The notes beneath the pieces were generated by a model. That model worked only from the letters and a program-made list of their open reading frames with translations, did not search any database and was not told where the DNA came from. Both the position numbers and the translations under genes were made by a program. Below are positions 1 to 32,498 of a stretch of 64,000 nt of DNA, piece after piece; within the stretch, counting starts at the first letter, position 1, and each line of letters opens with the position of its first letter. Source of the DNA: an uncultured Gammaproteobacteria bacterium (GTDB lineage: Bacteria > Patescibacteriota > Patescibacteriia > UBA11705 > JABHMO01); assembly GCA_964590105.1 (NCBI GenBank), contig CAZPYM010000002.1, forward strand, positions 90,697-154,696, read 5' to 3'.

Positions 1-218
1 GGCCGAGAAATCATCTGCACGGTAGTAAGAGTCAAACCAAAGTCCGCCAAAATTCCAAAAAACTGCAAAAAGGCCGTAACCGTAATATAGTAACCAAAAC
101 CTTCTTTGCCCAAATAGCGCGTCATCATGGCCACTGCCACTAAACTCAAAATTAAACTGATAAATTTACCGGTCAAATGAATAATCGTGTTATGAGCGAT
201 TTTTTTATTCAAAGTCAT
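1..218 (-). CDS. Polysaccharide biosynthesis/oligosaccharide flippase-like protein (MOP superfamily), N-terminal 72 aa only; gene runs off the window start
   Basis: Manual minus-strand translation from ATG at 218..216 gives MTLNKKIAHNTIIHLTGKFISLILSLVAVAMMTRYLGKEGFGYYITVTAFLQFFGILADFGLT. This is a typical Wzx/RfbX-type N-terminus (TM helix plus conserved GxxGFG region). Not in the ORF track because it is truncated by the window edge. Confidence 0.45.
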   Translation of the reverse strand, partial: MTLNKKIAHNTIIHLTGKFISLILSLVAVAMMTRYLGKEGFGYYITVTAFLQFFGILADFGLTLTTVQMISR

Positions 219-460
219 ATTTCATTAATCATTAAACATGGGACATTATTCATAGAGAGTAGGGCTACCCTTCTTTTCTAATCTTGTGTAGGAGGGATTC
301 CCGAATCCCGCCGCCCTTTTCCACGTTCTCCATTCCATGTTCCGTGTTATGTATTATGTTTCCCGTATTCCTCATTCACTACAATTCTATCACCAAATTA
401 TTGTTACAGCAAAGATATTTTTTGTTTTTCCGCTAAAATTAAGCGCAAACAATTTAACCC

Positions 461-488
461 TTGACAAATAATAGATATCTGCTAAACT
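461..488 (+). promoter_or_regulatory. Candidate sigma70-type promoter (TTGACA, 16-nt spacer, TAAACT) in the AT-rich DNA just upstream of the GC-rich nfeD-flotillin cassette
   Basis: ttgacaaataatagatatctgctaaact read directly. It is followed by the RBS aaaggagg (530-537) and ATG at 542. Confidence 0.3.
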
Positions 489-541
489 ATTCCATTCTGC
501 AATTACGCAGAATTGGGCTCATTGAAAACAAAGGAGGCACT

Positions 542-1174
542 ATGGAAACATGGTGGGTCGCGCTCAGCGGTTCTGAACAGTTTTTCTGGGTAATTGCCAT
601 CATTTCCACAATCTTTTTGCTCTGCCAGTTTGTCATGCTCCTCGTCGGTCTGGATGACCAGCACGATGGGAGCACTGACACTGACGCAGATTTTGACGGA
701 CACGTTGATGGCCACGATCATGACTCTGATTCTGATCATGACCATGACGCCGGCCATCACGGCCTGGCACTCAAGAGTTTCTTTTCCATTCGCAGTTTGG
801 TGGCTTTTTTTCTCGGATTTTCATGGGGGGGACTTGGTTGTTTGGAATCAGGACTGTCACTTTCAGCGGCAGTCGCTATCAGTATCGTTATCGGAATTGT
901 GATGGCCAGTGTGGTTTTGCTGATTTTCCGGGCCCTTGTAGGCCTCCGGAGCAACGGCACGCTATCTGTCAAAAATGCGATCGGCCAGAAGGGCGTTGTG
1001 CTCATCCTGGTCCCGGCTAATAAAAACGGTTACGGAAAAGTGCATGTCACGGTCCAGGGGCGACTCTGCGACCTGACGGCGGTGACGGACGGCGACATCA
1101 GTCTGCCGAGAGGAACCTCCATCACTGTGAAAGACGTGAAAGGCGATTCTCTCGTAGTTGTCAAGGATCAGTAA
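542..1174 (+). CDS. NfeD-like membrane protein (membrane helices plus C-terminal OB-fold NfeD domain), the partner of the flotillin gene; carries an unusual Asp/His-rich insert
   Basis: RBS aaaggagg sits 5 nt before ATG 542 (the ORF-track start at 461 lacks an RBS). Hydrophobic helices, then the C-terminal segment GVVLILVPANKNGYGKVHVTVQGRLCDLTAVTDGDISLPRGTSITVKDVKGDSLVV, typical of the NfeD short-form beta-barrel. Sits immediately upstream of a flotillin gene, as in yuaF-floT type operons. Strongly G+C-rich codon usage. Confidence 0.7.
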   Translation: METWWVALSGSEQFFWVIAIISTIFLLCQFVMLLVGLDDQHDGSTDTDADFDGHVDGHDHDSDSDHDHDAGHHGLALKSFFSIRSLVAFFLGFSWGGLGCLESGLSLSAAVAISIVIGIVMASVVLLIFRALVGLRSNGTLSVKNAIGQKGVVLILVPANKNGYGKVHVTVQGRLCDLTAVTDGDISLPRGTSITVKDVKGDSLVVVKDQ

Positions 1175-1206
1175 CCACCACACAACAACCCAAGAAGGAG
1201 GCTATC

Positions 1207-2907
1207 ATGGTGGCAGGAATCTCAATGTGGGTGATCCTGAGCGCGATTTTCGGGCTCATGGTCTTCATTCTTCTCATCTCGGCGGCGGCGCGCTACAAGC
1301 GCTGTCCGTCCAACAAAATCCTGGTCAAGTACGGCAAGGTCGGCAAGGACAAGTCCGCCGAGTGCATCCATGGCGGCGCCACCTTTGTGTGGCCGCTACT
1401 CCAGTCGTACGAGTATCTTGACCTCATCCCCATGACCATCGAGGTCAGCCTGAAGAGCGCGCTGTCCAAGCAGAACATCAGGATCAACGTGCCTTCCAGA
1501 TTCACCATCGGCGTATCCACCGAACCGCATGTCATGCAGTCGGCTGCAGAGCGCTTGCTCGGCCTGAGCCTCAAGGAAATCGAAACCCGGGCAGAGGACA
1601 TCATCCTCGGCCAGCTTCGCGCCACGATCGCCACGATGAAGATCGAGGAGATCAACAGCGACCGAGAGGGCTTCGAGAAGAAAGTCCAGGACAACGTCGA
1701 ATCCGAGCTGAACAAGATCGGCCTCAAGCTGATCAACGTGAACATCACGGACATCACTGACGAGTCCGGGTACATCGAGGCGCTCGGCAAGCAGGCCGCG
1801 GCCGAAGCCATCAACAACGCCAAAGTGCAGGTCGCCGAGCAGGACAAGGCTGGCGCCAGTGGAGAGGCAGAGGCTCGCAAGGACCAGACCATCAACGTCA
1901 CCGGCGCGGACCGGGAAGGCGCGGTGGTCAGAGCCCAAAACGAAGCCAAGATCTCCGAGGCGGACAAGGAACGCGACGTCAAGCGCGCCCAGTACACCGC
2001 GGAAACCCAGGCCGAAGAAGCCCGCCGCGACCAGGCCAAGCCGAAGGCAGACGCCGTGGCTCGGCAGGCGGTCGTGGTCGAGGAAGTCAAGGTCGAGGAA
2101 CGTCGCCAGCAGGCGCTGGTGGCGGTGAAGGAACGGGAGATCGAAGTAGCCGAGAAATCCCAGCAGGCTACGGTCGTCGTACCGGCGCTGAAGCTGGCAG
2201 ACGCGGCCGAAGCCAAGGCGGACGGCGATCGCCGAGCGGCGGTGAAGACCGCCGAAGGCCAGAAGCAATCGCAGATCCTCGCCGCGGAAGCTGAGAAGCA
2301 GAAGCGGGAACTCGAGGGTCAGGGCGAAGCGGCCCAGATCAAGGCGGTCGGGCTGGCCGAAGCGGCCAGAGTGCAGGCAATCGGCGAAGCCGAGGGCGCG
2401 GCCATCAAAGCCAAGCTCCTGGCCGAGGCCGAAGGTGTACTCAAGAAGGCAGAGGCCTATGCCAAGCTTGACAAAGCCGGAGCACTGCAGATGGTCCTGG
2501 AGAAGTTGCCCGAAATCATCGGCGCACTCGCGCCGGTCATGGCGGCAATCGCCAAGCCCATGGAGGCCATCGACAAGGTGGTAGTCATCGAACAGGGCAA
2601 CGGCGGCGGCGGCTCCGGACAGACCGGGGTATCCCGTTTCACCGGCAATGTGCCGGGAATCCTCTTCTCCTTCCTCCAGAAGGCAGGGGAAATGGGCATC
2701 GACGTCGGTCCCATGCTGAAGAAGGTCGGCATCGATGTCGAGGATCTGTTCAAGGCCGAGGCTCACAAGCCGACCGCCGAGGAACACGTCGACCAGCCGG
2801 CAGTTGAGGCGGCGCCCCCGGCCGCGGAAGCGACCAAGGGGACTCCGCCGGCCATTCCGGCAGATGCCAAACAGGGTGACAAGCACCCGCCCAAGGACGG
2901 CAAGTAA
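1207..2907 (+). CDS. floT: Flotillin-like SPFH/band-7 family protein (FloT/YqiK type) with long Ala/Glu/Lys/Gln-rich coiled-coil region
   Basis: RBS aaggagg at 1194-1200 and ATG at 1207. N-terminal TM helix, SPFH domain and extended EA-rich heptad region (AEQDKAGASGEAEARKDQ... AEAEKQKRELEGQGEAAQIKAVGLAEAARVQAIGEAEGAAIKAKLLAEAEG), characteristic of bacterial flotillins. The antisense ORFs 1293-2216 and 1396-2886 are GC-rich artefacts. Confidence 0.85.
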   Translation: MVAGISMWVILSAIFGLMVFILLISAAARYKRCPSNKILVKYGKVGKDKSAECIHGGATFVWPLLQSYEYLDLIPMTIEVSLKSALSKQNIRINVPSRFTIGVSTEPHVMQSAAERLLGLSLKEIETRAEDIILGQLRATIATMKIEEINSDREGFEKKVQDNVESELNKIGLKLINVNITDITDESGYIEALGKQAAAEAINNAKVQVAEQDKAGASGEAEARKDQTINVTGADREGAVVRAQNEAKISEADKERDVKRAQYTAETQAEEARRDQAKPKADAVARQAVVVEEVKVEERRQQALVAVKEREIEVAEKSQQATVVVPALKLADAAEAKADGDRRAAVKTAEGQKQSQILAAEAEKQKRELEGQGEAAQIKAVGLAEAARVQAIGEAEGAAIKAKLLAEAEGVLKKAEAYAKLDKAGALQMVLEKLPEIIGALAPVMAAIAKPMEAIDKVVVIEQGNGGGGSGQTGVSRFTGNVPGILFSFLQKAGEMGIDVGPMLKKVGIDVEDLFKAEAHKPTAEEHVDQPAVEAAPPAAEATKGTPPAIPADAKQGDKHPPKDGK

Positions 2908-2924
2908 GCGTCCATTGTAATCGA

Positions 2925-2965
2925 TCTCCCGTTACCACCAAGTTGGTATCGGGAGTTTTTTTTGA
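2925..2965 (+). terminator. Rho-independent terminator after the flotillin gene
   Basis: ctcccgttaccaccaagttggtatcgggag followed by tttttttt. Confidence 0.6.
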
Positions 2966-3040
2966 CCGCTTATTGACAATTACTAAATTTACCGTCATAC
3001 TTGGACGAAACAACTGTCCTTTTAAATGGAGGTCTCAATC

Positions 3041-4458: not shown

Positions 4459-4772
4459 ATACTAGGTTAGATGATTAAAAGAAAAAACTAAGAAATTAAT
4501 AAATTAAGAAAACAAGAAAAAAGGACCTTCTAATAAACTTAGCTTTGAAAAGTATAGCTCAAAATTAAATGTCTGTCAATGATTTTTTCTCTTGCAATTT
4601 TTTAGATAGTAATATAAAATTTTTACAAGAACTAACTTATCAACAGATTACTAACAGTTTAGACGCCTTTGGGGACATTTCAACAGCTTGTCCACATCTG
4701 CTTGCAGTGCTAAAATACAATCGTTAACAAGAATCTCGCTTCAGCAGGCTAACAAAAATAAAAATCCTTACT

Positions 4773-6152
4773 ATGGAAGATCAAAATCTACAACTTTGGC
4801 AAGCAGTGCTGGGCGAACTCGAGCTAACGCTGAGTAAGGCAAGCTTTACCACTTGGCTGAAAAATACTTTTATTATTGAAAATGAAGACGGCCGGATTGT
4901 TATCGGCGTGCCGAATACTTTTTCCCAAGCCTGGCTAAAACAAAAATATCATCAGAAAATTTACAACCTAATACAATCAAAAACCAAAGACCGAATTAAA
5001 GAAATCCACTATAAAGTCCAAAGCGTAAAAAATTATCAGGAAGAAATTAAAACACTGAAAAAACAAATTGTTGAAACAGCTCAAAATCAAGTAATACCCA
5101 CCAACCCTTCTTCCCCGACAAAAGTTCTGGGGCTCAATCCCAAGTATATATTTAACAATTTTATTGTTGGTAAAGGCAATGAACTGGCGCACGCCGCTTC
5201 CATTGCCGTGTCAGAACGACCGGGATTAACTTATAATCCTCTTTTTATTTACGGCGGCGTTGGTCTCGGAAAAACTCACTTATTGCATGCCGTTGGCAAT
5301 ACTATTTCTGCAAAAGATCCGAGTAAAAAAATTCTTTACGTTACTTGTGAGCAATTTACAAATGATTTCATAAGCGCCATCTCTTCCGGCCGAGCGGAAA
5401 AATTTAATATTGCCTACCGCACAGTGGATGTCCTCCTGATCGACGATATTCAATTTCTAACCGGCAAAGAAGGAACACAGGAAGCGTTTTTTCATACTTT
5501 TAATGACCTTCACCAGCGGGACAAACAAATTGTTTTGACTTCCGACCGACCGCCAAAAGCGATCGCCACGCTGGAAGACCGGCTTCTCTCAAGGTTTGAA
5601 TGGGGGATGATCGCTGATATTTCTCAGCCTGATCTTGAGACCAGAATTGCCATTTTAGAAGCAAAATGCCAGGAAAAAGAATTTGAATTGGAACGGGACA
5701 TCATTCAATATATTACCCTGAATATTCAAAACAACATTCGGGAGCTCGAAGGCGCTCTAAATAAAATAATAGCTTATCATCAACTGAACAAAATCACTCC
5801 CACCCTTGAAAACGTTAAAAAGATACTTTTTTCCATTTCCACTTCCAGCAAAAAAACCGGCGCTGTGTCCGCTCGTCAGCTGATTGAACTGGTTTGCGAT
5901 TTTTATGATTTGACAATTGACGATATGCTCGGCAAGAGCCGGGAAAAAAGACTGGCTTTCCCTCGCCAAATCATTATGTTTCTTCTTCGGGAAGAACTTC
6001 AATGCTCTTATCCAATGATTGGCAATGAACTCGGCGGCCGTGACCACACCACGGCTATGCACGCCCACGAAAAAATTTCCAGAGTCATGGAGTCGGATGA
6101 AAAAACCAGGCAGGAAATAAATTTAATCAAGCAAAGAGTTTACGCGCACTGA
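4773..6152 (+). CDS. dnaA: Chromosomal replication initiator protein DnaA
   Basis: AAA+ Walker A GGVGLGKTHLLHAVG, sensor/box VII region and C-terminal DNA-binding domain (FPRQIIMFLLREELQCSYPMIGNELGGRDHTTAMHAHEKI). Flanked by rnpA/rpmH and dnaN. Confidence 0.97.
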   Translation: MEDQNLQLWQAVLGELELTLSKASFTTWLKNTFIIENEDGRIVIGVPNTFSQAWLKQKYHQKIYNLIQSKTKDRIKEIHYKVQSVKNYQEEIKTLKKQIVETAQNQVIPTNPSSPTKVLGLNPKYIFNNFIVGKGNELAHAASIAVSERPGLTYNPLFIYGGVGLGKTHLLHAVGNTISAKDPSKKILYVTCEQFTNDFISAISSGRAEKFNIAYRTVDVLLIDDIQFLTGKEGTQEAFFHTFNDLHQRDKQIVLTSDRPPKAIATLEDRLLSRFEWGMIADISQPDLETRIAILEAKCQEKEFELERDIIQYITLNIQNNIRELEGALNKIIAYHQLNKITPTLENVKKILFSISTSSKKTGAVSARQLIELVCDFYDLTIDDMLGKSREKRLAFPRQIIMFLLREELQCSYPMIGNELGGRDHTTAMHAHEKISRVMESDEKTRQEINLIKQRVYAH

Positions 6153-6457
6153 TATCCTGTGGAAAACTCCCCGGTTTCAAGGGATAAAATAAGTGGATAA
6201 AAACAAGTCCAATCTGTTCATAAATATCTACCTCGCGGTTTTCCTTCAATAGTCTGTTTTTGTCCCCTGCTCTGATACAGGCATATCAACAATTCATCCA
6301 TAGACCTGTTTGCATAAAATTAAATTAAACAAAGGCTTATCCACCGCTATCCACAGCATTATTATTATTATTATTTTTATATATATATAATTTCTTATAA
6401 TAAGAAGAAGAGCAAATCAATTAAATAGAAAAAAATAAGTCATAAAAAAACTGGGAT
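6153..6457. other. Putative oriC in the dnaA-dnaN spacer: DnaA boxes plus AT-rich unwinding element
   Basis: agtggataa at 6192-6200 (reverse complement TTATCCACT). ttatccacc at 6338-6346 and ctatccaca at 6347-6355. Followed by the pure A/T tract attattattattatttttatatatatataatttcttataataa (about 6360-6410). An additional near-box ttgtccaca at 4688-4696 lies upstream of dnaA. Confidence 0.6.
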
Positions 6458-7585
6458 ATGAAATTAACTTGCTTGCAAGAAAATTTAAACTTCGGACTGC
6501 AGTCAACAGGACATTTGGTAAATAAAAATATTAATTTACCGATTCTTAGTAATGTACTTCTAGAAGCCAAGGAAGGAACCTTAAAACTCTCAAGCACGAA
6601 TCTTGAAATCGGCATCAGCTGTGTGGTTCGTTGCAAAGTTGAAACAGAAGGGTCTTTTACTGTTGACGCCAGGCTTTTGTCTGAATATATAAATTTATTG
6701 CCCAATGAACAAGTAAATATAAATTTAGCTAGTGATGATTTTTTGAAAGTAGCCTGTCGAAATTCAGAAACCAAAATAAAGGGCATCGTGGCGGATGACT
6801 TCCCTGTCATTCCAAAAATCGACAAGCAAAATCCGTATCGTGTAAAAATAGATGAATTTAAAAAAGCAATTTCGCAAGTAATTTTTACGGTCGCCTCATC
6901 AGAAAACAGACCGGAGATTAGTGGAGTATTGCTTAGTTTTAATAAGTTTAAGAAAAATGAATTATTTTTAGCTGGCACGGACAGCTACCGTTTGGCGGAA
7001 AAAAGTGTCGCCCTGGTTGAAGGTCAACAAGAGCAAGACGTGATAGTTCCACTAAAAACAATGCAGGAAGTTTTGCGAATATTGAATAATTTGAAAGATC
7101 AGGCCAATAATGTTGAACAGCTGGACATTTATATTTCAGAAAATCAAATTCTATTTAATTGCGATTCGATTGAATTAATTTCCCGACTGCTTGAAGGGCA
7201 GTATCCTGATTATAAACAAATAATTCCGCAAGAAACAAAAACCAAGATCATAACTTCGGTTGCCGAGCTAAGCAAAGCCATAAAAAAAGTGGCGTTATTT
7301 TCCAAAGCCGGAATTTTTGATATTAATTTAGTATTTGAAGCTCAAAAAGGACTGACAGTCAGCGCAGTGAATACTCAAGTCGGAGAAAGTAAAACTGATC
7401 TTGATGTAGAATTTACCGGCGAAACAAATGATACAACTTTGAACTTTCGATATTTATTGGACGGCTTGAATAATCTAGACTCAAGCGAAGTTGAAATTAG
7501 CCTAGTGGACAATAATCTCCCCTGTATTATGAAAGCAAAAGGAAAAGATGATTATTTGTATATTGTAATGCCGATTAAACAATGA
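6458..7585 (+). CDS. dnaN: DNA polymerase III beta subunit (sliding clamp)
   Basis: 375 aa with the three-domain beta-clamp pattern (MKLTCLQENLNFGLQ..., LLEAKEGTLKLSSTNLEIGI..., MPIK end). Directly downstream of dnaA. Confidence 0.95.
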   Translation: MKLTCLQENLNFGLQSTGHLVNKNINLPILSNVLLEAKEGTLKLSSTNLEIGISCVVRCKVETEGSFTVDARLLSEYINLLPNEQVNINLASDDFLKVACRNSETKIKGIVADDFPVIPKIDKQNPYRVKIDEFKKAISQVIFTVASSENRPEISGVLLSFNKFKKNELFLAGTDSYRLAEKSVALVEGQQEQDVIVPLKTMQEVLRILNNLKDQANNVEQLDIYISENQILFNCDSIELISRLLEGQYPDYKQIIPQETKTKIITSVAELSKAIKKVALFSKAGIFDINLVFEAQKGLTVSAVNTQVGESKTDLDVEFTGETNDTTLNFRYLLDGLNNLDSSEVEISLVDNNLPCIMKAKGKDDYLYIVMPIKQ

Positions 7586-22599: not shown

Positions 22600-23577
22600 T
22601 TATTTAATTTGAGCGTCTTCCTGAAATTTATTTAAAAATGTTTCGCTAACTGTTATAACTTGCTCCCAGTTCCAGCCATTATTTATCAAAGCTTGCTCAT
22701 TTATGATATGTTGCTTTGTTTGTTTATTCATCAAATACACCTTATCAGTATTTGCGGAGCGTAGCAAACTGCCCGATTTGAGTTGAAGCTCGGCGACAGT
22801 CGGCGAAAAGCCATTATCAATTTCTTCTTTATCCAAATATCCGTCTTGATCCGTATCGCTGGAAATTAAACTGGTTTTGTATCTCAATTCTTGTGATTTA
22901 GTTAGCCCGTCCAGGTCGCCGTCGAGCGAAGCTGAATTTTTTATTTCAGGGCTGGTGAAGATTGCCACTTTTGCGCCGGTTTTTGTTTTATTGCCGGCCA
23001 CAAAATCGTGCATGGCGTCTATAATTGTTTCATAGGAGTAGCGAAGATTGCGGCCATACTGCGTGCCCGGTTCCTGTGTGATGAATTCCTGATTAATGTC
23101 ATCATAACCAGAAATCACCAGTACATGATAATCAGGTCCGCCGTTCAGAAAATATGGATTTTTCAAATACTTGCCATACGCTGGTAAAATAATGGGATGT
23201 TTTTTTTGAATCTGCTCTTTCATTTGTTCAACCGTGGGACTGGCAACAACATCAGCTTCCCAATTAAAGAAATTATTTATCAATTGGGCAATTTTCCCGG
23301 CTTCTTCATCTTTGCTTTTGCCAAAGTAGGTTTCTTTAATCTGATTAATATTGGCAATACCTTGCTCGGCGGAGTTTAAATTAAGTTCCTGATTATTATA
23401 AAATGCATCTACAATTAAAATAGACGTCTCTTCGCAAGTGTTTTGCCACGACCCTGTCCAATTGCCGATAGGCGCTTGAGAGCTGAAACTGATATTTAGC
23501 GATTCGGCGATTACAGGAAAGGCTAAGATCATTATTATCAGCGCCGAGACAAGAGGAAGGTTTTTGAATGCTTTCAT
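22600..23577 (-). CDS. Secreted peptidase C39-like domain protein with Asp-rich Ca-binding (dockerin/TSP3-like) motifs
   Basis: Signal peptide; a papain-like core typical of C39_2 domains; SLDGDLDGLT and SDTDQDGYLDKEEID calcium-binding-type repeats. Confidence 0.45.
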   Translation of the reverse strand: MKAFKNLPLVSALIIMILAFPVIAESLNISFSSQAPIGNWTGSWQNTCEETSILIVDAFYNNQELNLNSAEQGIANINQIKETYFGKSKDEEAGKIAQLINNFFNWEADVVASPTVEQMKEQIQKKHPIILPAYGKYLKNPYFLNGGPDYHVLVISGYDDINQEFITQEPGTQYGRNLRYSYETIIDAMHDFVAGNKTKTGAKVAIFTSPEIKNSASLDGDLDGLTKSQELRYKTSLISSDTDQDGYLDKEEIDNGFSPTVAELQLKSGSLLRSANTDKVYLMNKQTKQHIINEQALINNGWNWEQVITVSETFLNKFQEDAQIK

Positions 23578-24128
23578 GTGAAAATAATATGTCTGTTGAT
23601 ATTATACAGTTTTACTGGCGAGCCAACAACTCCGGAAAACAAATTAACGGAAGTAAGCTATTTTTTCAAAAAAAAAGCGCGAACTGTACGCCCTATGAAA
23701 TAAATTATATGGCGAGCTCGCGCTCGTGTCTTGTGTAAAGCCGGCCTTCTTAGATAACTTTTAGAAGGTGTCATCCTTAAAAGCACAAAGCTTTCAAGAC
23801 TGTTGTGTGGACATCTGGTGTTTACCCTTCCACGGGAGAGCCGCTAGGGATCCCTGGTGAAATTTTTGTTTTTGTTTTTGATTGATCGAAATAGGAAGAG
23901 TAAGTAGATGTAATGGACCGAATGGCCCTAGAGTGAATTTTCCAAACTCAACTTGGAAAGTTGTGTTCAAAGAGCAAGTTTGCGAAAGAACATGTAGAAA
24001 TTGATGCATGGATCACTTCCTACCTCTATATTATAGCACGTTGAAAATACCCGGTCAAGGGTTTTAGGCAATTTTTGTAAATTTAGTTATTTCTTGTGAG
24101 AATTAAATGAATTGATAGGGTGTGAGCT

Positions 24129-24165
24129 GTGGATAACTCTGTGGATTTATCTACCTTATCCACAT
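24129..24165. promoter_or_regulatory. Cluster of three DnaA boxes (two perfect, convergent) outside oriC
   Basis: tgtggataa at 24129-24137 (reverse complement TTATCCACA, perfect). tgtggattt at 24141-24149 (7/9). ttatccaca at 24157-24165 (perfect). Confidence 0.5.
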
Positions 24166-24176
24166 GTTTGTATACA

Positions 24177-25400
24177 CTAGTCTATACAAATCGTATTTTG
24201 ATTGAAAATTCCAGTACGAAGAACAATATGATTGAAGAAGTTACTTAGCTCGGCACTTTGGGGTTTGATATATAGACAATTTTTTGAAAACATGCCGGAA
24301 CAGCTGGTCGTGTTTATGTTGGCCGGCGATGAAACGATTGATTCATGCGGAAAATTATTATTAATAATCAGCTGACCGTCGACTTCGGTTAGTCGAAGGT
24401 CTAAATTTATTTTTGGTTCAGTCAAAATGTATTGTTGTTGGTAGTCACTGACAACAGTTTCAAATTTCCAAGCATTAGGATCAGCTATATATTGAATGGC
24501 CGTGGTTTGATCCGGCAGCAGTTTTGATTTTTCGCTAGGTAATGTTTGGGCTAGAATATTTAGGATGAACGACTGAAGCTGTTCGGTCGGGTTTTCTTTT
24601 TGAGAAGCGATTATCATGAATCCGTCCGGTGTTTGGGCAAATTCCACTGCCCCGTTTAATGATTTAAGCAGATGAAAAATAAAATTCTGCGGCGAATATT
24701 CTGCGTTTTGAACAATTTTTCCTGGAAATATATTGTTGAAGTAGGCACTGGTATCAGCCGGCAGGACAGAAATTTGTGGTTTTTCGTGCCTACCAACTTC
24801 TTGTCCGGTGAGCCCGTGAGTTTTCAAACAAAGAGTGTTTTCGTGCGCACTGCCGGCCAATGCCAGCGGTGAAGATGGCTGATCCGCGACAAAAGGGATT
24901 TTTAAAGTGCGGATGTCTTTTATATAGATGAGAAAATTCGTAAAAGCTATTTTGCGCCGCGTTTGTTTGAACCATTCCGTTTCATGTAGTTTGTCGGCGG
25001 AAACAGTCAGTCGTGGGAAAAACAAGACTTTGCCTTCGCGCGTGAAGGAAGTTTCATTGCGTGAGATTAGTTCGAGCGTTTTCTGCGTGTCCTTGGCTAC
25101 GGCAAACACCTGCCCATTTAAGGAAAAAAAGCCAACTTCTTCATCCAGGTGTTCAAGAATAGATTGCCATCTGCCAGCAGACATGGCGCTTTTGTCTTCA
25201 AGCCAGGAAAGATAAAAGATTCGTTGTTTTTCTGGAATTTTCAAAAGGTTTTGTGTTGTTGTGTGGAAATAGGCCTCTGCCTGCGCCGGAACGTATTTGA
25301 CAAGATGGTCGTTATGATTGAAAAACAAAAATAGCCAACAGCCGACGAAGACGGTTACTGATAAAACAAAAAGCCAGAATTTTAATCGAAAGTAACTCAT
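24177..25400 (-). CDS. Hypothetical membrane-anchored protein (407 aa)
   Basis: N-terminal TM helix; no recognisable motifs. Confidence 0.4.
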   Translation of the reverse strand: MSYFRLKFWLFVLSVTVFVGCWLFLFFNHNDHLVKYVPAQAEAYFHTTTQNLLKIPEKQRIFYLSWLEDKSAMSAGRWQSILEHLDEEVGFFSLNGQVFAVAKDTQKTLELISRNETSFTREGKVLFFPRLTVSADKLHETEWFKQTRRKIAFTNFLIYIKDIRTLKIPFVADQPSSPLALAGSAHENTLCLKTHGLTGQEVGRHEKPQISVLPADTSAYFNNIFPGKIVQNAEYSPQNFIFHLLKSLNGAVEFAQTPDGFMIIASQKENPTEQLQSFILNILAQTLPSEKSKLLPDQTTAIQYIADPNAWKFETVVSDYQQQYILTEPKINLDLRLTEVDGQLIINNNFPHESIVSSPANINTTSCSGMFSKNCLYIKPQSAELSNFFNHIVLRTGIFNQNTICID

Positions 25401-29354: not shown

Positions 29355-30227
29355 ATGTCGTCAGTAAATAAACTTATAACTGAATTTCTTTTTGACTTGA
29401 GAAAAAGAAAAAGAACCGAGCGCACGGCGCGCAACTATGATTTGTATTTACGCAGATTTTCAGGCTGGCTTGAGCAAAAGCAGATAGAAAACATGGGGCA
29501 AGTAACGCCGGAACTTATTGCCAAGTATAAAATTTGGCTAAAAAAAATAAAAAACCCGATAAAGAAAATTTATTTGAAAGAAAATACTCAGAATTATCAT
29601 TTGATTGCGCTAAGGGAGTTTATCAAGTATTTGGGAAAGAAAAAAATTTTGTCAATTACCAACCCGAAAATCAAATTGCCAAAAACCCTGAAAGTTAAGG
29701 CCGGCTTTCTCAGTAAAGAAGATGTTCAACTTTTATTGGAATCGCCAATGAAAATTTCACAACCCAGATTGATTCAGCTTCGCGATAGAGCGATATTGGA
29801 ATTGTTTTATTCTACCGGAATTCGAGTTTCTGAGGAGGCAAGCCTGCAGGTTAGCGATATAAATTTTCAAAAACAAGAAATTCTTGTTTGTTCCGGGCAG
29901 AAGAAAGAACGCAGAATTAAATTTTCCAATCAAGCCAAGCATTGGCTGGTTCAATATTTGGAAAGAAGAAAAAATAAAAGTAAATATGTTTTTGTGAGTC
30001 ACGACCGAGCAAAAGCAACAAGAGAAGATGCCGGGCTTAGCGCCAGAAGTTTAGAAAGAATAGTTGAAAAATATGCTAGAGGCGCCGGTATTGACAAAAA
30101 AGTCACTCCGCAGATGCTTCGTCATACATATGCATTTCTTTTGGTCGAAAGAACAGCTGATCCGCGGTCAGTTAAACAAAAACTCGGTCACCTTTCTCTA
30201 AATTCAGCGATGAGATACTTTGATTAA
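29355..30227 (+). CDS. xerC: Tyrosine site-specific recombinase XerC/XerD family
   Basis: N-terminal SAM-like core-binding domain. Catalytic domain with R...HxxR (LRHTYAFLL) and C-terminal LGHLSLNSAMRY containing the catalytic Tyr. Confidence 0.85.
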   Translation: MSSVNKLITEFLFDLRKRKRTERTARNYDLYLRRFSGWLEQKQIENMGQVTPELIAKYKIWLKKIKNPIKKIYLKENTQNYHLIALREFIKYLGKKKILSITNPKIKLPKTLKVKAGFLSKEDVQLLLESPMKISQPRLIQLRDRAILELFYSTGIRVSEEASLQVSDINFQKQEILVCSGQKKERRIKFSNQAKHWLVQYLERRKNKSKYVFVSHDRAKATREDAGLSARSLERIVEKYARGAGIDKKVTPQMLRHTYAFLLVERTADPRSVKQKLGHLSLNSAMRYFD

Positions 30228-30962: not shown

Positions 30963-30984
30963 TAGGGCTAAATGTTCCACGTGG
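30963..30984. promoter_or_regulatory. Perfect 22-bp palindrome AAATGTTCCACGTGGAACATTT, copy 1
   Basis: Read directly; identical core at 31635-31656. Confidence 0.5.
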
Positions 30985-31062
30985 AACATTTTTATAATCT
31001 GATTCATGCGGGCTGAATTCGTTCAGCGAGTTCATTACCTAACTTACTTAATTTCTTTGCGT

Positions 31063-31137
31063 GCTCCCGTAGTTCAGTGGATAGAACAAGACACTCCTAA
31101 CGTCTAGACGCAGGTTCGATTCCTGCCGGGGGCACCA
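31063..31137 (+). tRNA. tRNA-Arg (anticodon CCT)
   Basis: gctcccgtagttcagtggatagaacaagacactCCTaacgtctagacgcaggttcgattcctgccgggggcacca. One A:C mismatch in the anticodon stem; otherwise a close paralogue of the tRNA at 30590. Confidence 0.75.
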
Positions 31138-31634
31138 TGAATCACTTGCCCCTTTGGGACTCGGGTTCATGGCAAGCCATGAATATTAGAATATCTGTGG
31201 ATCTCGGGTTCATTCTTCCCGTGCACTTGAACACAGAAAGCAGTACATGGGCAACGGCGTTGATTGTGAAATGAATTTGGAAGCTGTTATCTTTGAGTAA
31301 ACAATACTAATTTGAAGTTAGTATTTTTTGTTTGCTAAAGCAATGTACAAATATCAAGAATCAATGATAAATGGTAATATTGCTCGTATTGCTGGACGGA
31401 TTTTATGAATAATGCAGGATTTGCTCGAATATTAAATAGCCCAATATTTTATAAAACACCAAAAACTGTGGAAAACATGGTGATAACTGTTGATTTTTGG
31501 GCTATTTGTACACACTAGTGTAGCCAAGTGGGGGGGCTTGGGTTTAGTAAATTGGAAATTCGGAATTGGGGTTGATGGGAAATTTAGTAATATTGATAGC
31601 TCAAAAAAAAACTAAAGAAGATTTGCTGGTAAAA

Positions 31635-31656
31635 AGAAAAAAATGTTCCACGTGGA
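31635..31656. promoter_or_regulatory. Perfect 22-bp palindrome AAATGTTCCACGTGGAACATTT, copy 2
   Basis: Read directly; about 80 bp upstream of the start of the TrmB-family regulator gene (minus strand). Confidence 0.5.
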
Positions 31657-31736
31657 ACATTTGTACAAACATTCAGAAGGACATTTGATTTTGTTAGTCA
31701 TTTTATATGAATATATGAGTCGCAAAATAATAATTA

Positions 31737-32498
31737 TTAGTATTTCAATGTTTTAGCTGATTTCCATGCTTGTTCGAAAAGTGTTTTATGTGTTTCAGCC
31801 AAATCCTTGTTTTCAATAATGATCACGTAATATTTGTTTTTGTTATAAGGCAGGAAGGCAATTTTATTGCCAAAAATAATATTATCACCGCGACCGCAAC
31901 CAAATTTTTTGTTAAAAAAGCGAATTGTATGATTAGGGTTTTTAATTTTTGTAACAACATTGGCGTATTTTACGTTTGCTTCATCAAGGGGGAGGAGCTC
32001 GCGGGTTTTTACGTCGGGATTTTTTAAAGTGTCTTTATATTCTTCGAATATATCTGAATAAAGATCTACAGGTTCAATAATTGAACCATAAAAAACAGCT
32101 TCTTGGCCGGTTTTCAGAAAATTAAGAACCTCGCGGTAAACCTGCACCACCCCATCCTTTCCTTCAAAAAATTGAACTTCCGGTTTGTTAGGCTGTTGGT
32201 TATATATCGCCATCAAGTTTGGAATAGCCTTTTCTAGGTTCTTCTCTCGCTGCTTTAATTGGGTCAATAGATTCTTTGGTGAAGCGGCGCTATATAGCGT
32301 GGCTTTTTTTGTTTTGCGAAAACTGACAAGTCCGCGTTCTGCTAGGGTTTGAAGGATTACATAGGTTGTCGGGCGTTTAACTCGGGCAATTGTTGAAATA
32401 TTAAAAACCGTGTCTTCGCCCAACTGAAGACAAGTAAGGTAAATGGCGGACTGTTTTTGATCAAAGCCAATTGATTTTAGTGTTTGTGAGAGTTCCAT
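31737..32498 (-). CDS. TrmB-family transcriptional regulator (N-terminal winged HTH plus C-terminal sensor domain)
   Basis: MELSQTLKSIGFDQKQSAIYLTCLQLGEDTVFNISTIARVKRPTTYVILQTLAERGLV is a TrmB-type wHTH. Confidence 0.65.
   Translation of the reverse strand: MELSQTLKSIGFDQKQSAIYLTCLQLGEDTVFNISTIARVKRPTTYVILQTLAERGLVSFRKTKKATLYSAASPKNLLTQLKQREKNLEKAIPNLMAIYNQQPNKPEVQFFEGKDGVVQVYREVLNFLKTGQEAVFYGSIIEPVDLYSDIFEEYKDTLKNPDVKTRELLPLDEANVKYANVVTKIKNPNHTIRFFNKKFGCGRGDNIIFGNKIAFLPYNKNKYYVIIIENKDLAETHKTLFEQAWKSAKTLKY

Follow-up and report, generated by a model that had tools for sequence, protein, structure and literature searches.

A conserved DnaA-box cluster coupled to a palindrome and a candidate structured RNA near the predicted origin of a CPR/Patescibacteria genome

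Introduction

The locus considered here raises the question of what role a tight group of DnaA boxes might play when it lies 17.7 kb from the unwinding module between dnaA and dnaN. The boxes were noticed in a 64-kb stretch of DNA (the window, i.e., the whole stretch that was analyzed), and the initial annotation offered three candidate readings: a datA-like titration site, a DnaA-regulated promoter, or part of a bipartite origin. As set out below, the bipartite origin did not hold up, the promoter reading is plausible, albeit not for the downstream peptidase gene, and titration is plausible in a broad sense. A literature search turned up no publication about DnaA boxes or replication origins in the CPR/Patescibacteria. 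Judged by sequence and by conservation in relatives, the boxes most likely mark a genuine site of DnaA control rather than a second origin.

Results

The array comprises three boxes within 37 bp. Box 1 (24156-24164, plus strand) and box 3 (24128-24136, minus strand, on the promoter side) are perfect copies of TTATCCACA, with box 1 inverted relative to boxes 2 and 3 and to the RNA gene described below. Box 2 (24140-24148, minus strand) is a weak, 7/9 box, TGTGGATTT, which reads AAATCCACA on the minus strand and stands in tandem with box 3 at a spacing of 3 nt. Two perfect boxes with a 7/9 box between them had been reported at this locus, and all three were recovered, but the earlier coordinates (24129-24165) were one base off, the separation of the perfect boxes is 19 nt rather than 20 bp, and the perfect boxes, described as convergent, diverge by the 5′-TTATCCACA-3′ arrow convention (the TTAT ends point inward). 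No further box with up to 1 mismatch was found in the gap from 23578 to 24176.

The earlier claim that perfect boxes are rare by chance in a window of this size was borne out: 0.41 copies of TTATCCACA are expected in 64 kb and 2 are present, namely, boxes 1 and 3. At least two perfect boxes occurred anywhere in the window in 8/100 shuffles, and pairs no more than 50 bp apart are expected at ∼4e-4 per window and were seen in 0/300 Markov-1 random windows. When a cluster was defined as a 100-bp span with at least two boxes of no more than 1 mismatch each, four clusters were observed in the window versus 0.37 expected, and these were located only at the two flanks of dnaA (4637-4696, 6158-6200, and 6337-6355) and at the 24-kb locus. 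The box survey as a whole covered the 64-kb window and about 110 kb of the relatives' loci. The boxes at 24 kb are not a product of chance.

The window's own origin offers a standard of comparison. A canonical DnaA is encoded at 4773-6152, with rpmH, rnpA, and yidD upstream of its gene, and the gap between dnaA and dnaN contains trio-like repeats and an AT-rich tract in addition to tandem boxes. The unwinding module (6337-6390, plus strand) consists of TTATCCACC, a single g, CTATCCACA, GC, (ATT)x6, and then the AT-rich TTTTATATATATATAA; its boxes are of the TTATCCACA type, and the tandem boxes with the following GC occupy 6337-6357. GC skew changes sign only once in the window, at about 3 to 7 kb, where negative skew is visible over just ∼3 kb at the window's edge. 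As predicted from these features, the real origin is the dnaA-dnaN gap.

The 24-kb cluster shares part of this design. As in the basal unwinding system of oriC (Pelliciari et al. 2021, PMC8287927), two tandem boxes of the same polarity are followed by GC, but DnaA-trio repeats, an AT-rich unwinding element, and a GC-skew switch are missing. The stretch that separates box 3 from the −35 element (24059-24127) is 70% A+T and poorly conserved in sequence; no DnaA-trio repeats were found in it, and the boxes are not followed by a low-complexity AT tract. GC skew is positive throughout 8 to 25 kb and does not switch at the cluster. The cluster could nevertheless be imagined as part of a bipartite origin, as had been suggested, or of a second one: its tandem boxes and GC resemble the start of the window's oriC module, it has an AT-rich flank and an adjacent strong promoter, parS sites lie 7 kb away, and in one relative (L064) iteron-like palindrome repeats occur at a second copy of the element (see below). 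However, a complete module with trios and an unwinding element already lies between dnaA and dnaN. In known bipartite origins the two parts flank dnaA, and 17.7 kb far exceeds the separation found in them. We regard a second or bipartite origin at this locus as highly improbable.

The gap from 23578 to 24176 is real, as the initial annotation had it, and both flanking genes are on the minus strand, but it is far from blank and contains a complete promoter-RNA-terminator unit. The order on the minus strand is a palindrome over the upstream stop codon, the three boxes, a 69-bp spacer, a promoter, an RNA of ∼356 nt, and a terminator. The boxes are directly 3′ of a 407-amino-acid (aa) gene whose stop codon is at 24177-24179, and they lie 5′ of a C39-like peptidase gene (Pfam PF13529; E value, 1.5e-8) at a distance of about 550 bp. 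The promoter (24030-24058, minus strand) is of the sigma-70 type, TTGACC-17-TATAAT with a TG extension (11/12 matches), and the boxes are at about −105 to −142. An 11/12 promoter with TGn was present in 12/12 of the loci compared below, in each case with DnaA boxes adjoining it, and box 3 is separated from the −35 element by 58 to 94 bp across lineages.

A DnaA-regulated promoter is plausible for the conserved RNA gene, which has its own terminator, but not for the peptidase gene. The boxes are indeed in the gap 5′ of the latter, but the full promoter-RNA-terminator unit intervenes, an extended −10 element of the peptidase gene's own can be seen in the sequence at 23601-23608, and the adjacency is not conserved. 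No C39 peptidase gene directly follows the RNA in at least six relatives, those with enough downstream sequence (L006, L058, L062, L064, L069, and L070); in L066, three genes on the opposite strand come first, and a C39-like gene appears about 1.2 kb further downstream. All of these loci retain the module without an adjoining peptidase, and control of the peptidase gene by the boxes is extremely improbable.

The gene downstream of the promoter is predicted to encode a candidate structured noncoding RNA of about 356 nt (23668-24023, minus strand; ends predicted). The fold comprises a 5′ hairpin (23994-24023), a long-range helix (23894-23903 with 23822-23831) around the A-rich tract AAAAACAAAAACAAAAA (23863-23879) and a conserved hairpin, and, after the 3′ domain, a terminal hairpin with a U run as the predicted terminator (23668-23725), all on the minus strand. 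The fold has a z-score of −4.06, and the same architecture emerged from independent folds of 9/11 homologs with compensatory changes, double changes being present in 7/89 and 10/29 predicted pairs. Across lineages, no conserved open reading frame (ORF) was found within the RNA region; a 71-aa ORF (23794-24009) was rejected as a small-protein gene, its start not being conserved and its frame being shifted by 2-nt and 1-nt indels. At the gathering score, Rfam 15 returned only tRNAs from the window and six relatives' loci, and a search of the window's gap and the L058 locus at E values up to 10 gave only noise (miRNA and snoRNA models). ARAGORN predicted no tmRNA. Identity with RNase P, tmRNA, SRP, or 6S RNA was considered by eye and rejected in each case; the 5′ and 3′ ends of the RNA do not pair, and the P4-like strings found in the window's copy are not kept in L006. 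The RNA is therefore presented as a candidate for a previously undescribed, conserved structured RNA that is absent from Rfam 15. A box-like TGATCCACG in the 5′ hairpin was also rejected as a conserved fourth box, in that the core box positions vary and the hairpin loop explains it better; the one exception is an extra perfect box in L062 (see below).

The unit recurs in 12 loci, which correspond to about 8 independent CPR lineages, not 12, because the six L006-type loci are close relatives. The relatives are labeled Falkowbacteria, Kuenenbacteria, Magasanikbacteria, and Parcubacteria, and their upstream proteins of ∼400 aa are 25 to 40% identical to that of the window. Presence in the syntenic regions of relatives had been named as a check on the cluster, and the cluster was present in 11/11 relatives examined. 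A scan of a genome collection with the 3′ hairpin of the RNA yielded one true relative only (L008, cut at the promoter), and a metagenome scan yielded 48 loci, 44/48 of which were chance matches in GC-rich coding DNA.

Within the unit, the boxes are better conserved than their surroundings. Box 1 reads TTATCCACA, TTATCCCCA, TTATACACA, or TTATGCACA in 11 loci (majority frequency, 0.93), and box 3 is perfect in 10/11 loci of the same geometry (majority frequency, 0.99 in the 10 scored loci; L064 was read separately). The 7 nt that separate boxes 1 and 2 drift (majority frequency, 0.51) while the boxes are kept. In the 20 boxes at positions 1 and 3 of the array, nucleotides 4, 6, 8, and 9 are constant, and changes occur at nucleotide 5 (twice), nucleotide 2 (once), and nucleotide 7 (A to C, five times, all within the closely related L006-type group). 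Box 2 (majority frequency, 0.83) varies at nucleotides 1 to 3 and 5, and its TCCACA core is invariant except for nucleotide 5 in the 10 loci scored; nucleotide 9 differs in L064. Because the relatives have TTTTCCACA, TTATTCACA, TTATCCACG, or TTTTGCACA there, box 2 can be taken as a true box. In the relatives, each of the three boxes either fits TTWTNCACA or shows no more than 1 mismatch, and the Escherichia coli consensus, TT(A/T)TNCACA, leaves nucleotides 3 and 5 degenerate. The three boxes probably represent a DnaA-binding array under purifying selection, which would form one half of a fixed composite element.

The same alignment bears on whether the motif belongs to DnaA at all. The window's TGTGGATAA...TTATCCACA forms an inverted repeat of 9 bp without mismatch, which probably falls within the transcript of the upstream gene, before a weak terminator-like hairpin seen in the sequence at the −35 element; it might be an RNA hairpin in that gene's 3′ untranslated region or an operator for some other protein that recognizes inverted repeats. 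The box 1 changes TGGGGATAA, TGTGTATAA, and TGTGCATAA are uncompensated, however, with box 3 remaining TTATCCACA, so the pairing of box 1 with box 3 is not conserved, and the RNA hairpin was rejected. Further points against a non-DnaA motif are that the middle box is kept as a third, direct-orientation copy of the 9-mer, that the second copy of the element and the L070 locus have direct repeats only, and that nucleotides 4, 6, 8, and 9 are invariant bar the one nucleotide-9 change in L064. Much of the variation falls at the nucleotides that are degenerate in the DnaA consensus (3 and 5), and the remainder is at nucleotides 1 and 2 of the weak box and nucleotide 7 of box 1. A motif unrelated to DnaA is very unlikely.

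Synteny of the region is strongly conserved, so the co-occurrence of boxes and RNA rests on one rearranged lineage, L070. There, the ∼400-aa gene is missing, whereas the palindromes, boxes, promoter, and RNA are kept, which indicates that the module and the RNA gene move together. In this distant relative, the tandem pair is inverted and all three boxes point in the same direction, the palindrome is intergenic and present in two copies, and yidD-rnpA-rpmH lies about 10.5 kb from the module.

The palindrome is the second constant part of the unit. Located 2 nt from box 1, it is 24 bp long (24167-24190; TTTGTATAGACTAGTGTATACAAA on the minus strand), covers the stop codon (TAG) of the 407-aa gene, and was unique in the window at the search stringency used. 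It is present with 0 to 3 mismatches in 12/12 loci. It showed no evident match to the parS, dif, LexA box, or Fur box motifs, and it was absent from a viral contig collection. The distance from palindrome to box 3 is 29 to 30 bp in both copies of the element and in all lineages with this layout.

The second copy of the composite element (31467-31528, minus strand) consists of a palindrome (31505-31528), 18 nt, TTATCACCA (31478-31486), 2 nt, and TTTTCCACA (31467-31475). It has direct repeats only, the opposed box being missing, and neither a promoter nor an RNA was found after it; its geometry is repeated in L064, L068, and L069. Two perfect parS sites, TGTTCCACGTGGAACA (30973-30988 and 31644-31659), bracket the region 30973-31659, which includes tRNA-Arg(CCT) along with the second copy, and such a bracket is found in four lineages (the window, L064, L068, and L069), without a conserved promoter. 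A TrmB-like winged-helix protein (31737-32498) is encoded beside the second copy, and a Xer-like recombinase is encoded at 29355-30227. From these occurrences, the predicted composite element is a 24-bp palindrome, 18 bp, and two tandem DnaA boxes 2 to 3 bp apart; at the 24-kb copy, a third, inverted box of predicted high affinity occupies the 18 bp.

The two copies differ in what they adjoin, and this is relevant to the possibility that the 24-kb boxes are purely a transcription factor site, at which DnaA would only activate or repress the RNA promoter, thereby tying the level of the RNA to the state of replication, and play no role in the control of DnaA or of initiation. The boxes precede the 11/12 promoter in 12/12 loci, the link between boxes and RNA outlasts the loss of the upstream gene in L070, an additional perfect box is found at about +24 of the RNA in L062, and DnaA is a transcription factor at Bacillus subtilis box clusters (PMC3245932). 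Against this reading, the second copy has the same geometry without a promoter, the location of the boxes (about −105 to −142) is far from the core promoter, and the TGATCCACG in the 5′ hairpin of the RNA is not a conserved operator. The 58- to 94-bp range of distances to the −35 element and the flipped tandem pair of L070 also argue against a rigid activator geometry. A purely transcriptional role is possible but doubtful.

Discussion

The locus most resembles the DnaA-box clusters (DBCs) of B. subtilis, which are origin-proximal, restrain initiation, and regulate neighboring genes (Okumura et al. 2012, PMC3245932). Like them, it is an intergenic cluster of consensus-type boxes that is outside but near an oriC located at dnaA-dnaN, is conserved among relatives, and adjoins a promoter that it possibly regulates. 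Unlike the B. subtilis clusters, the three boxes are confined to 37 bp and rigidly coupled to a 24-bp palindrome, the neighbor is a noncoding RNA, and a paralogous copy lies between parS sites.

The titration loci and reactivating sequences of E. coli are more distant. The datA locus has about five boxes over roughly 1 kb, includes an essential IHF site, and is beside tRNA-Gly. Both datA and the present element are box loci outside oriC beside a stable RNA (the second copy here adjoins tRNA-Arg), and the palindrome would be the counterpart of the accessory-protein site that datA requires. In contrast to datA, 2 to 3 boxes within 37 bp are found here instead of about five over ∼1 kb, with a palindrome in place of the IHF site; no IHF consensus was recognized by eye in the spacer. 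Titration, as initially annotated, is plausible in a wider sense, that of an origin-proximal DnaA-box cluster, for which the promoter-less second copy between parS sites provides support. The titration capacity of three boxes is limited compared with that of datA or the B. subtilis clusters.

The arrangement at 24 kb also recalls DARS, and a DARS-like site would assemble ADP-DnaA on the three boxes and release the ADP, regenerating ATP-DnaA. The core of E. coli DARS1, as described by Sugiyama et al. (2019, PMC6868365) and as read directly here, is TTATCCACT-5-TGTGGATAA-3-TGTGTATTA. The 24-kb locus likewise has one box opposed to two in tandem, with a 3-bp tandem spacing and a consensus box in the tandem pair, and DARS2 has accessory-protein sites beside its core that are analogous to the palindrome. 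However, boxes I and II of DARS1 converge (CACA ends inward) 5 bp apart, whereas the opposed boxes here diverge across a gap of 7 to 8 bp; the opposed arrangement is absent from the second copy and from L070, where all boxes share one direction; and the accessory motif is a palindrome and not an IHF or Fis site as in DARS2. A DARS-like function is very unlikely. To our knowledge, DARS has been characterized only in E. coli and its relatives.

The reading that we favor, with a probability of roughly 0.5, is that the boxes form a DnaA-box cluster near the origin, comparable to those of B. subtilis, with a putative palindrome-binding partner, and that this cluster probably also controls the RNA promoter. 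Under this model, boxes 1 and 3, the perfect ones, would be docking sites for DnaA, and the weak box 2 would be filled by DnaA through head-to-tail cooperation with box 3, while a hypothetical dimeric protein would occupy the adjacent palindrome. The resulting nucleoprotein complex may act as the DBCs do, holding or modulating DnaA near the origin, and at the 24-kb copy it may also make the RNA promoter respond to DnaA occupancy. A more speculative extension, which we advance only tentatively, is that the element represents a new type of DnaA control locus of the CPR/Patescibacteria, functionally analogous to datA or DARS, that its palindrome cofactor is lineage specific and possibly the TrmB-like protein, and that the ∼356-nt RNA is a new replication-coupled regulator set by DnaA.

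Essentially no work has addressed how replication initiation is controlled in the CPR/Patescibacteria, a very large group of mostly uncultured organisms with small genomes. The textbook unwinding module between dnaA and dnaN gives these genomes a fixed predicted origin on which peak-to-trough estimates of growth can be based. An element that is found twice within the origin domain, in one case by parS, suggests that a DnaA-buffering or -modulating system may exist even in minimal genomes. At the 24-kb copy, a strongly promoted and conserved candidate RNA family outside Rfam 15 is physically coupled to DnaA boxes, and should the expression of this RNA indeed be set by DnaA, the locus would provide a direct link from the initiator to a noncoding RNA.

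Perfect DnaA boxes at 24.1 kb, outside the replication origin

A sequence scan of the window located two perfect DnaA boxes (TTATCCACA), at 24128-24136 (−; box 3) and 24156-24164 (+; box 1), with a 7/9 match between them at 24140-24148 (−; box 2, AAATCCACA on the − strand). The trio reported in the initial annotation is thus confirmed, with corrections: its coordinates had been shifted by one base, the perfect boxes are separated by 19 nt rather than 20 bp, and, drawn with the customary arrows, they are divergent, not convergent. The rarity claimed for such boxes also holds. Two perfect boxes were observed versus 0.41 expected from dinucleotide shuffles, and perfect pairs ≤50 bp apart are expected only ∼4 × 10⁻⁴ times per window (0/300 Markov-1 random windows). 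Clusters of two or more boxes (≤1 mismatch) within 100 bp number four versus 0.37 expected and are confined to the two flanks of dnaA (4637-4696, 6158-6200, and 6337-6355) and the 24.1-kb locus. Every box at oriC carries one mismatch, and the perfect boxes of the window occur only at 24.1 kb.

The genes dnaA (4773-6152) and dnaN (6458-7585) were confirmed, with rpmH, rnpA, and a yidD-like gene upstream of dnaA on the opposite strand. GC skew changes sign at ∼3 to 7 kb, where just ∼3 kb of negative skew is visible at the window edge. The dnaA-dnaN gap contains a textbook unwinding module at 6337-6390, TTATCCACC g CTATCCACA GC (ATT)x6 TTTTATATATATATAA, in which a tandem pair of boxes is followed by a GC step, then by a trinucleotide repeat (its complement consists of 3′-AAT-5′ units) and an AT-rich tract. 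Because this is the layout of the basal unwinding system that most bacterial origins are described as having (PMC8287927), the predicted assignment of oriC to the gap is sound. The 24.1-kb cluster lies 17.7 kb away and had been proposed as part of a bipartite origin, but trio repeats, an unwinding element, and a skew change are all absent there, making a second origin very unlikely. Separately, window positions 1-3000, which include an SPFH/flotillin gene (1207-2907), have a G+C content of 0.51 to 0.61 versus ∼0.40 across the remaining window and could be foreign DNA.

Conservation of the boxes and the adjacent palindrome

The boxes lie between a gene for a 407-aa membrane-anchored protein without a Pfam or NCBIfam match (24177-25400, −) and a C39_2-like peptidase gene (22600-23577, −). 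Read on the − strand, a 24-bp palindrome (TTTGTATAGACTAGTGTATACAAA, 24190..24167, −) spans the TAG stop codon of the 407-aa gene and is followed by 2 nt, the inverted box 1, 7 nt, the weak box 2, 3 nt, and box 3. Beyond a 69-bp spacer (70% A+T) come a near-consensus promoter, TTGACC-17-TGcTATAAT (24058..24030, −; 11/12 matches plus a TG extension), ∼356 nt without a conserved open reading frame, and, at 23725..23668 (−), an intrinsic terminator made up of a long hairpin and a run of nine T residues. An extended −10 belonging to the peptidase gene itself (TGTATAAT) can be seen in the sequence at 23601-23608. The ∼400-aa family formed by the product of 24177-25400 (−) and its homologs has an N-terminal membrane helix, and in most lineages the palindrome overlaps and so fixes its final codons (CID-stop); a word-indexed search of a 5.8-billion-protein collection yielded five sequence clusters and missed the homologs of L062 to L069.

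Five metagenome contigs carry identical copies of the window locus. Relatives' loci were reached via homologs of the 407-aa protein (L006, L058, L059), an exact-match scan with the 3′ hairpin of the downstream RNA (L008, L033, L035, L039, L047), or the DksA/TraR-like gene downstream of the locus (L062, L064, L066, L068, L069, L070). Their proteins are labeled as Candidatus Falkowbacteria, Kuenenbacteria, Magasanikbacteria, and Parcubacteria group, and their upstream ∼400-aa proteins are 25 to 40% identical to that of the window. The comparison covered the 64-kb window and 4 to 20 kb per relative; six L006-type loci are closely related, so about eight independent lineages are represented. The module was present in all loci whose sequence extends this far, bearing out the conservation on which the initial proposal depended, and its layout is the same in 11/12 loci. 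Examples are TGTGTATAA-7-TTTTCCACA-3-TTATCCACA in L062, TGTGGATAA-7-TTATTCACA-3-TTATCCACA in L066, TGTGGATAA-7-TTTTGCACA-3-TTATCCACA in L068, and TGTGCATAA-8-TTATCCACG-2-TTATCCACA in L064 (spacers in nt).

For the ten loci whose spacers are 7 and 3 nt, majority-base frequencies were 0.93, 0.83, and 0.99 for boxes 1, 2, and 3, compared to 0.51 for the 7-nt spacer. Box positions 4, 6, 8, and 9 are invariant in these loci; L064, outside this set, shows a single substitution at position 9. Box 2 varies at positions 1 to 3 and 5; boxes 1 and 3 vary at position 5 (twice), position 2 (once), and position 7 (A to C in five L006-type loci). The Escherichia coli DnaA consensus, TT(A/T)TNCACA, is itself degenerate at positions 3 and 5. 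At the level of sequence comparison, this pattern of variation carries the mark of selection for DnaA binding. An RNA hairpin formed between boxes 1 and 3 was rejected, since no change in box 1 is matched by a compensating one in box 3.

The ∼110 kb of relatives' loci contain 12 perfect boxes, 9 of them in the element corresponding to the 24.1-kb copy. The other three are in the 5′ end of the RNA (L062), in a second copy of the element (L064), and at L070:731. The L062 box (L062:8889-8897) lies at approximately +24 of the RNA in that lineage alone. The L070 box (L070:731-739), on a Magasanikbacteria-type contig, sits between a ribonucleotide reductase gene (−) and ruvB (+), recalling the E. 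coli nrd genes, which are under DnaA control.

The module accompanies the promoter of a candidate structured RNA

The boxes had also been considered a control site for the peptidase gene. However, the peptidase gene does not directly follow the RNA in L006, L058, L062, L064, L069, or L070, so the boxes are not a peptidase operator; in L066, a C39-like gene is found ∼1.2 kb further on, past three opposite-strand genes. L070, of the Magasanikbacteria type, lacks the ∼400-aa gene too. There, two intergenic palindromes flank three boxes, TGTGGATAA ctc TGTGCAAAA ... AGTGGATAA, with the tandem pair inverted. Next come an 11/12 promoter, an RNA that bears an A-tract and is probably homologous to that of the window, and a terminator, all upstream of a dksA-like gene. 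Thus, the module appears to travel with the RNA gene. The palindrome, likewise, is a DNA element in its own right rather than a by-product of coding sequence. Because synteny is the rule across this region, co-occurrence carries less weight as an argument. The 11/12 promoter with its TG extension is present in 12/12 loci, at 58 to 94 bp from box 3 to the −35. An A-tract/stem/T-tract palindrome, AAAAAAATGACTGGACAAAG and TTGACCGGTCATTTTTTT, overlaps the −35 at L006:4017-4054 and occupies the same place in L039, L047, L058, and L059; the window version is weak (ACCCTTGACCGGGT). It may be the terminator of the upstream gene.

The 356-nt stretch folds much better than shuffled sequences (z = −4.06), and no Rfam family reached threshold for the window or any relative lineage searched. 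Homologs span 320 to 600 nt (L062 has an insertion of ∼200 nt) and all begin GTAG, GTGA, or GTAA, some six nt past the −10. Their common features are a 5′ hairpin, a long-range helix around a conserved A-rich tract of consecutive ARN triplets (CAAAAACAAAAAC...), a hairpin conserved as GGAGA...GGCUCUCUCC or GGGAUCC...AUCCC, a 3′ domain, and a terminal hairpin with a trailing U run. Independent minimum-energy folds recovered the enclosing helix in 9/11 sequences, and the helix covaries, pairing UUACUCUUCC with GGAAGGGUAA, CUUACUCUUUC with GAAAGGGUAAG, AAUACUCUUUU with AAAAGGGUAUU, ACUCCUUUU with AAAAGGGGU, and UUUACUCUUCCUU with GAGGAGGGGUGAA. RNAalifold reported double compensatory changes at 7/89 and 10/29 predicted pairs. 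The RNA (23668-24023, −; predicted ends) probably represents a new structured RNA family.

A second palindrome-box element and the likely function

A second element was found at 31467-31528 (−), consisting of the palindrome with 5/24 mismatches, 18 nt, TTATCACCA, 2 nt, and TTTTCCACA. Palindrome matches of this quality are expected an estimated ∼0.005 times by chance in the window. The element lies, with a tRNA-Arg(CCT) gene (31063-31137), between perfect parS sites (30973-30988 and 31644-31659) and adjoins a TrmB-like winged-helix gene (31737-32498, −); the arrangement and the 18-nt distance recur in L064, L068, and L069. In L064, positions 560-885 hold four iteron-like direct repeats of ∼100 bp, each with the palindrome preceded by a conserved AAAGTAAATTTAAACAAAA stretch, then TTATCAATA gt TTATCCACA, between two parS sites. 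No conserved sequence or predicted promoter was found downstream of the second-element boxes in the window or the relatives' copies. In the first element, the palindrome is likewise 18 nt from box 2 (2 + 9 + 7), so the two copies have a common geometry (palindrome, N18, box, N2-3, box). The N18 of the first element holds the extra inverted box.

A DARS-like reading fails on a defining feature: the opposed pair of E. coli DARS1 (TTATCCACT-5-TGTGGATAA-3-TGTGTATTA) is convergent, whereas that of the first element is divergent with a 7- to 8-bp gap, and the opposed box is missing from the second copy. Because the geometry is independent of the promoter, the promoter distance is variable, and both copies are origin proximal, the primary function would be to assemble DnaA and a palindrome-binding partner into a nucleoprotein complex. 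A further transcriptional role at the RNA promoter is likely, since adjacency to that promoter is constant and was retained through the L070 rearrangement. We give roughly even odds (∼0.5) to this dual reading, in which DnaA binding, the partner, and effects on initiation and on the RNA are all putative; a purely transcriptional role of the boxes is less likely. The closest precedent is the origin-proximal DnaA-box clusters of Bacillus subtilis, which restrain initiation and regulate neighboring promoters (PMC3245932).
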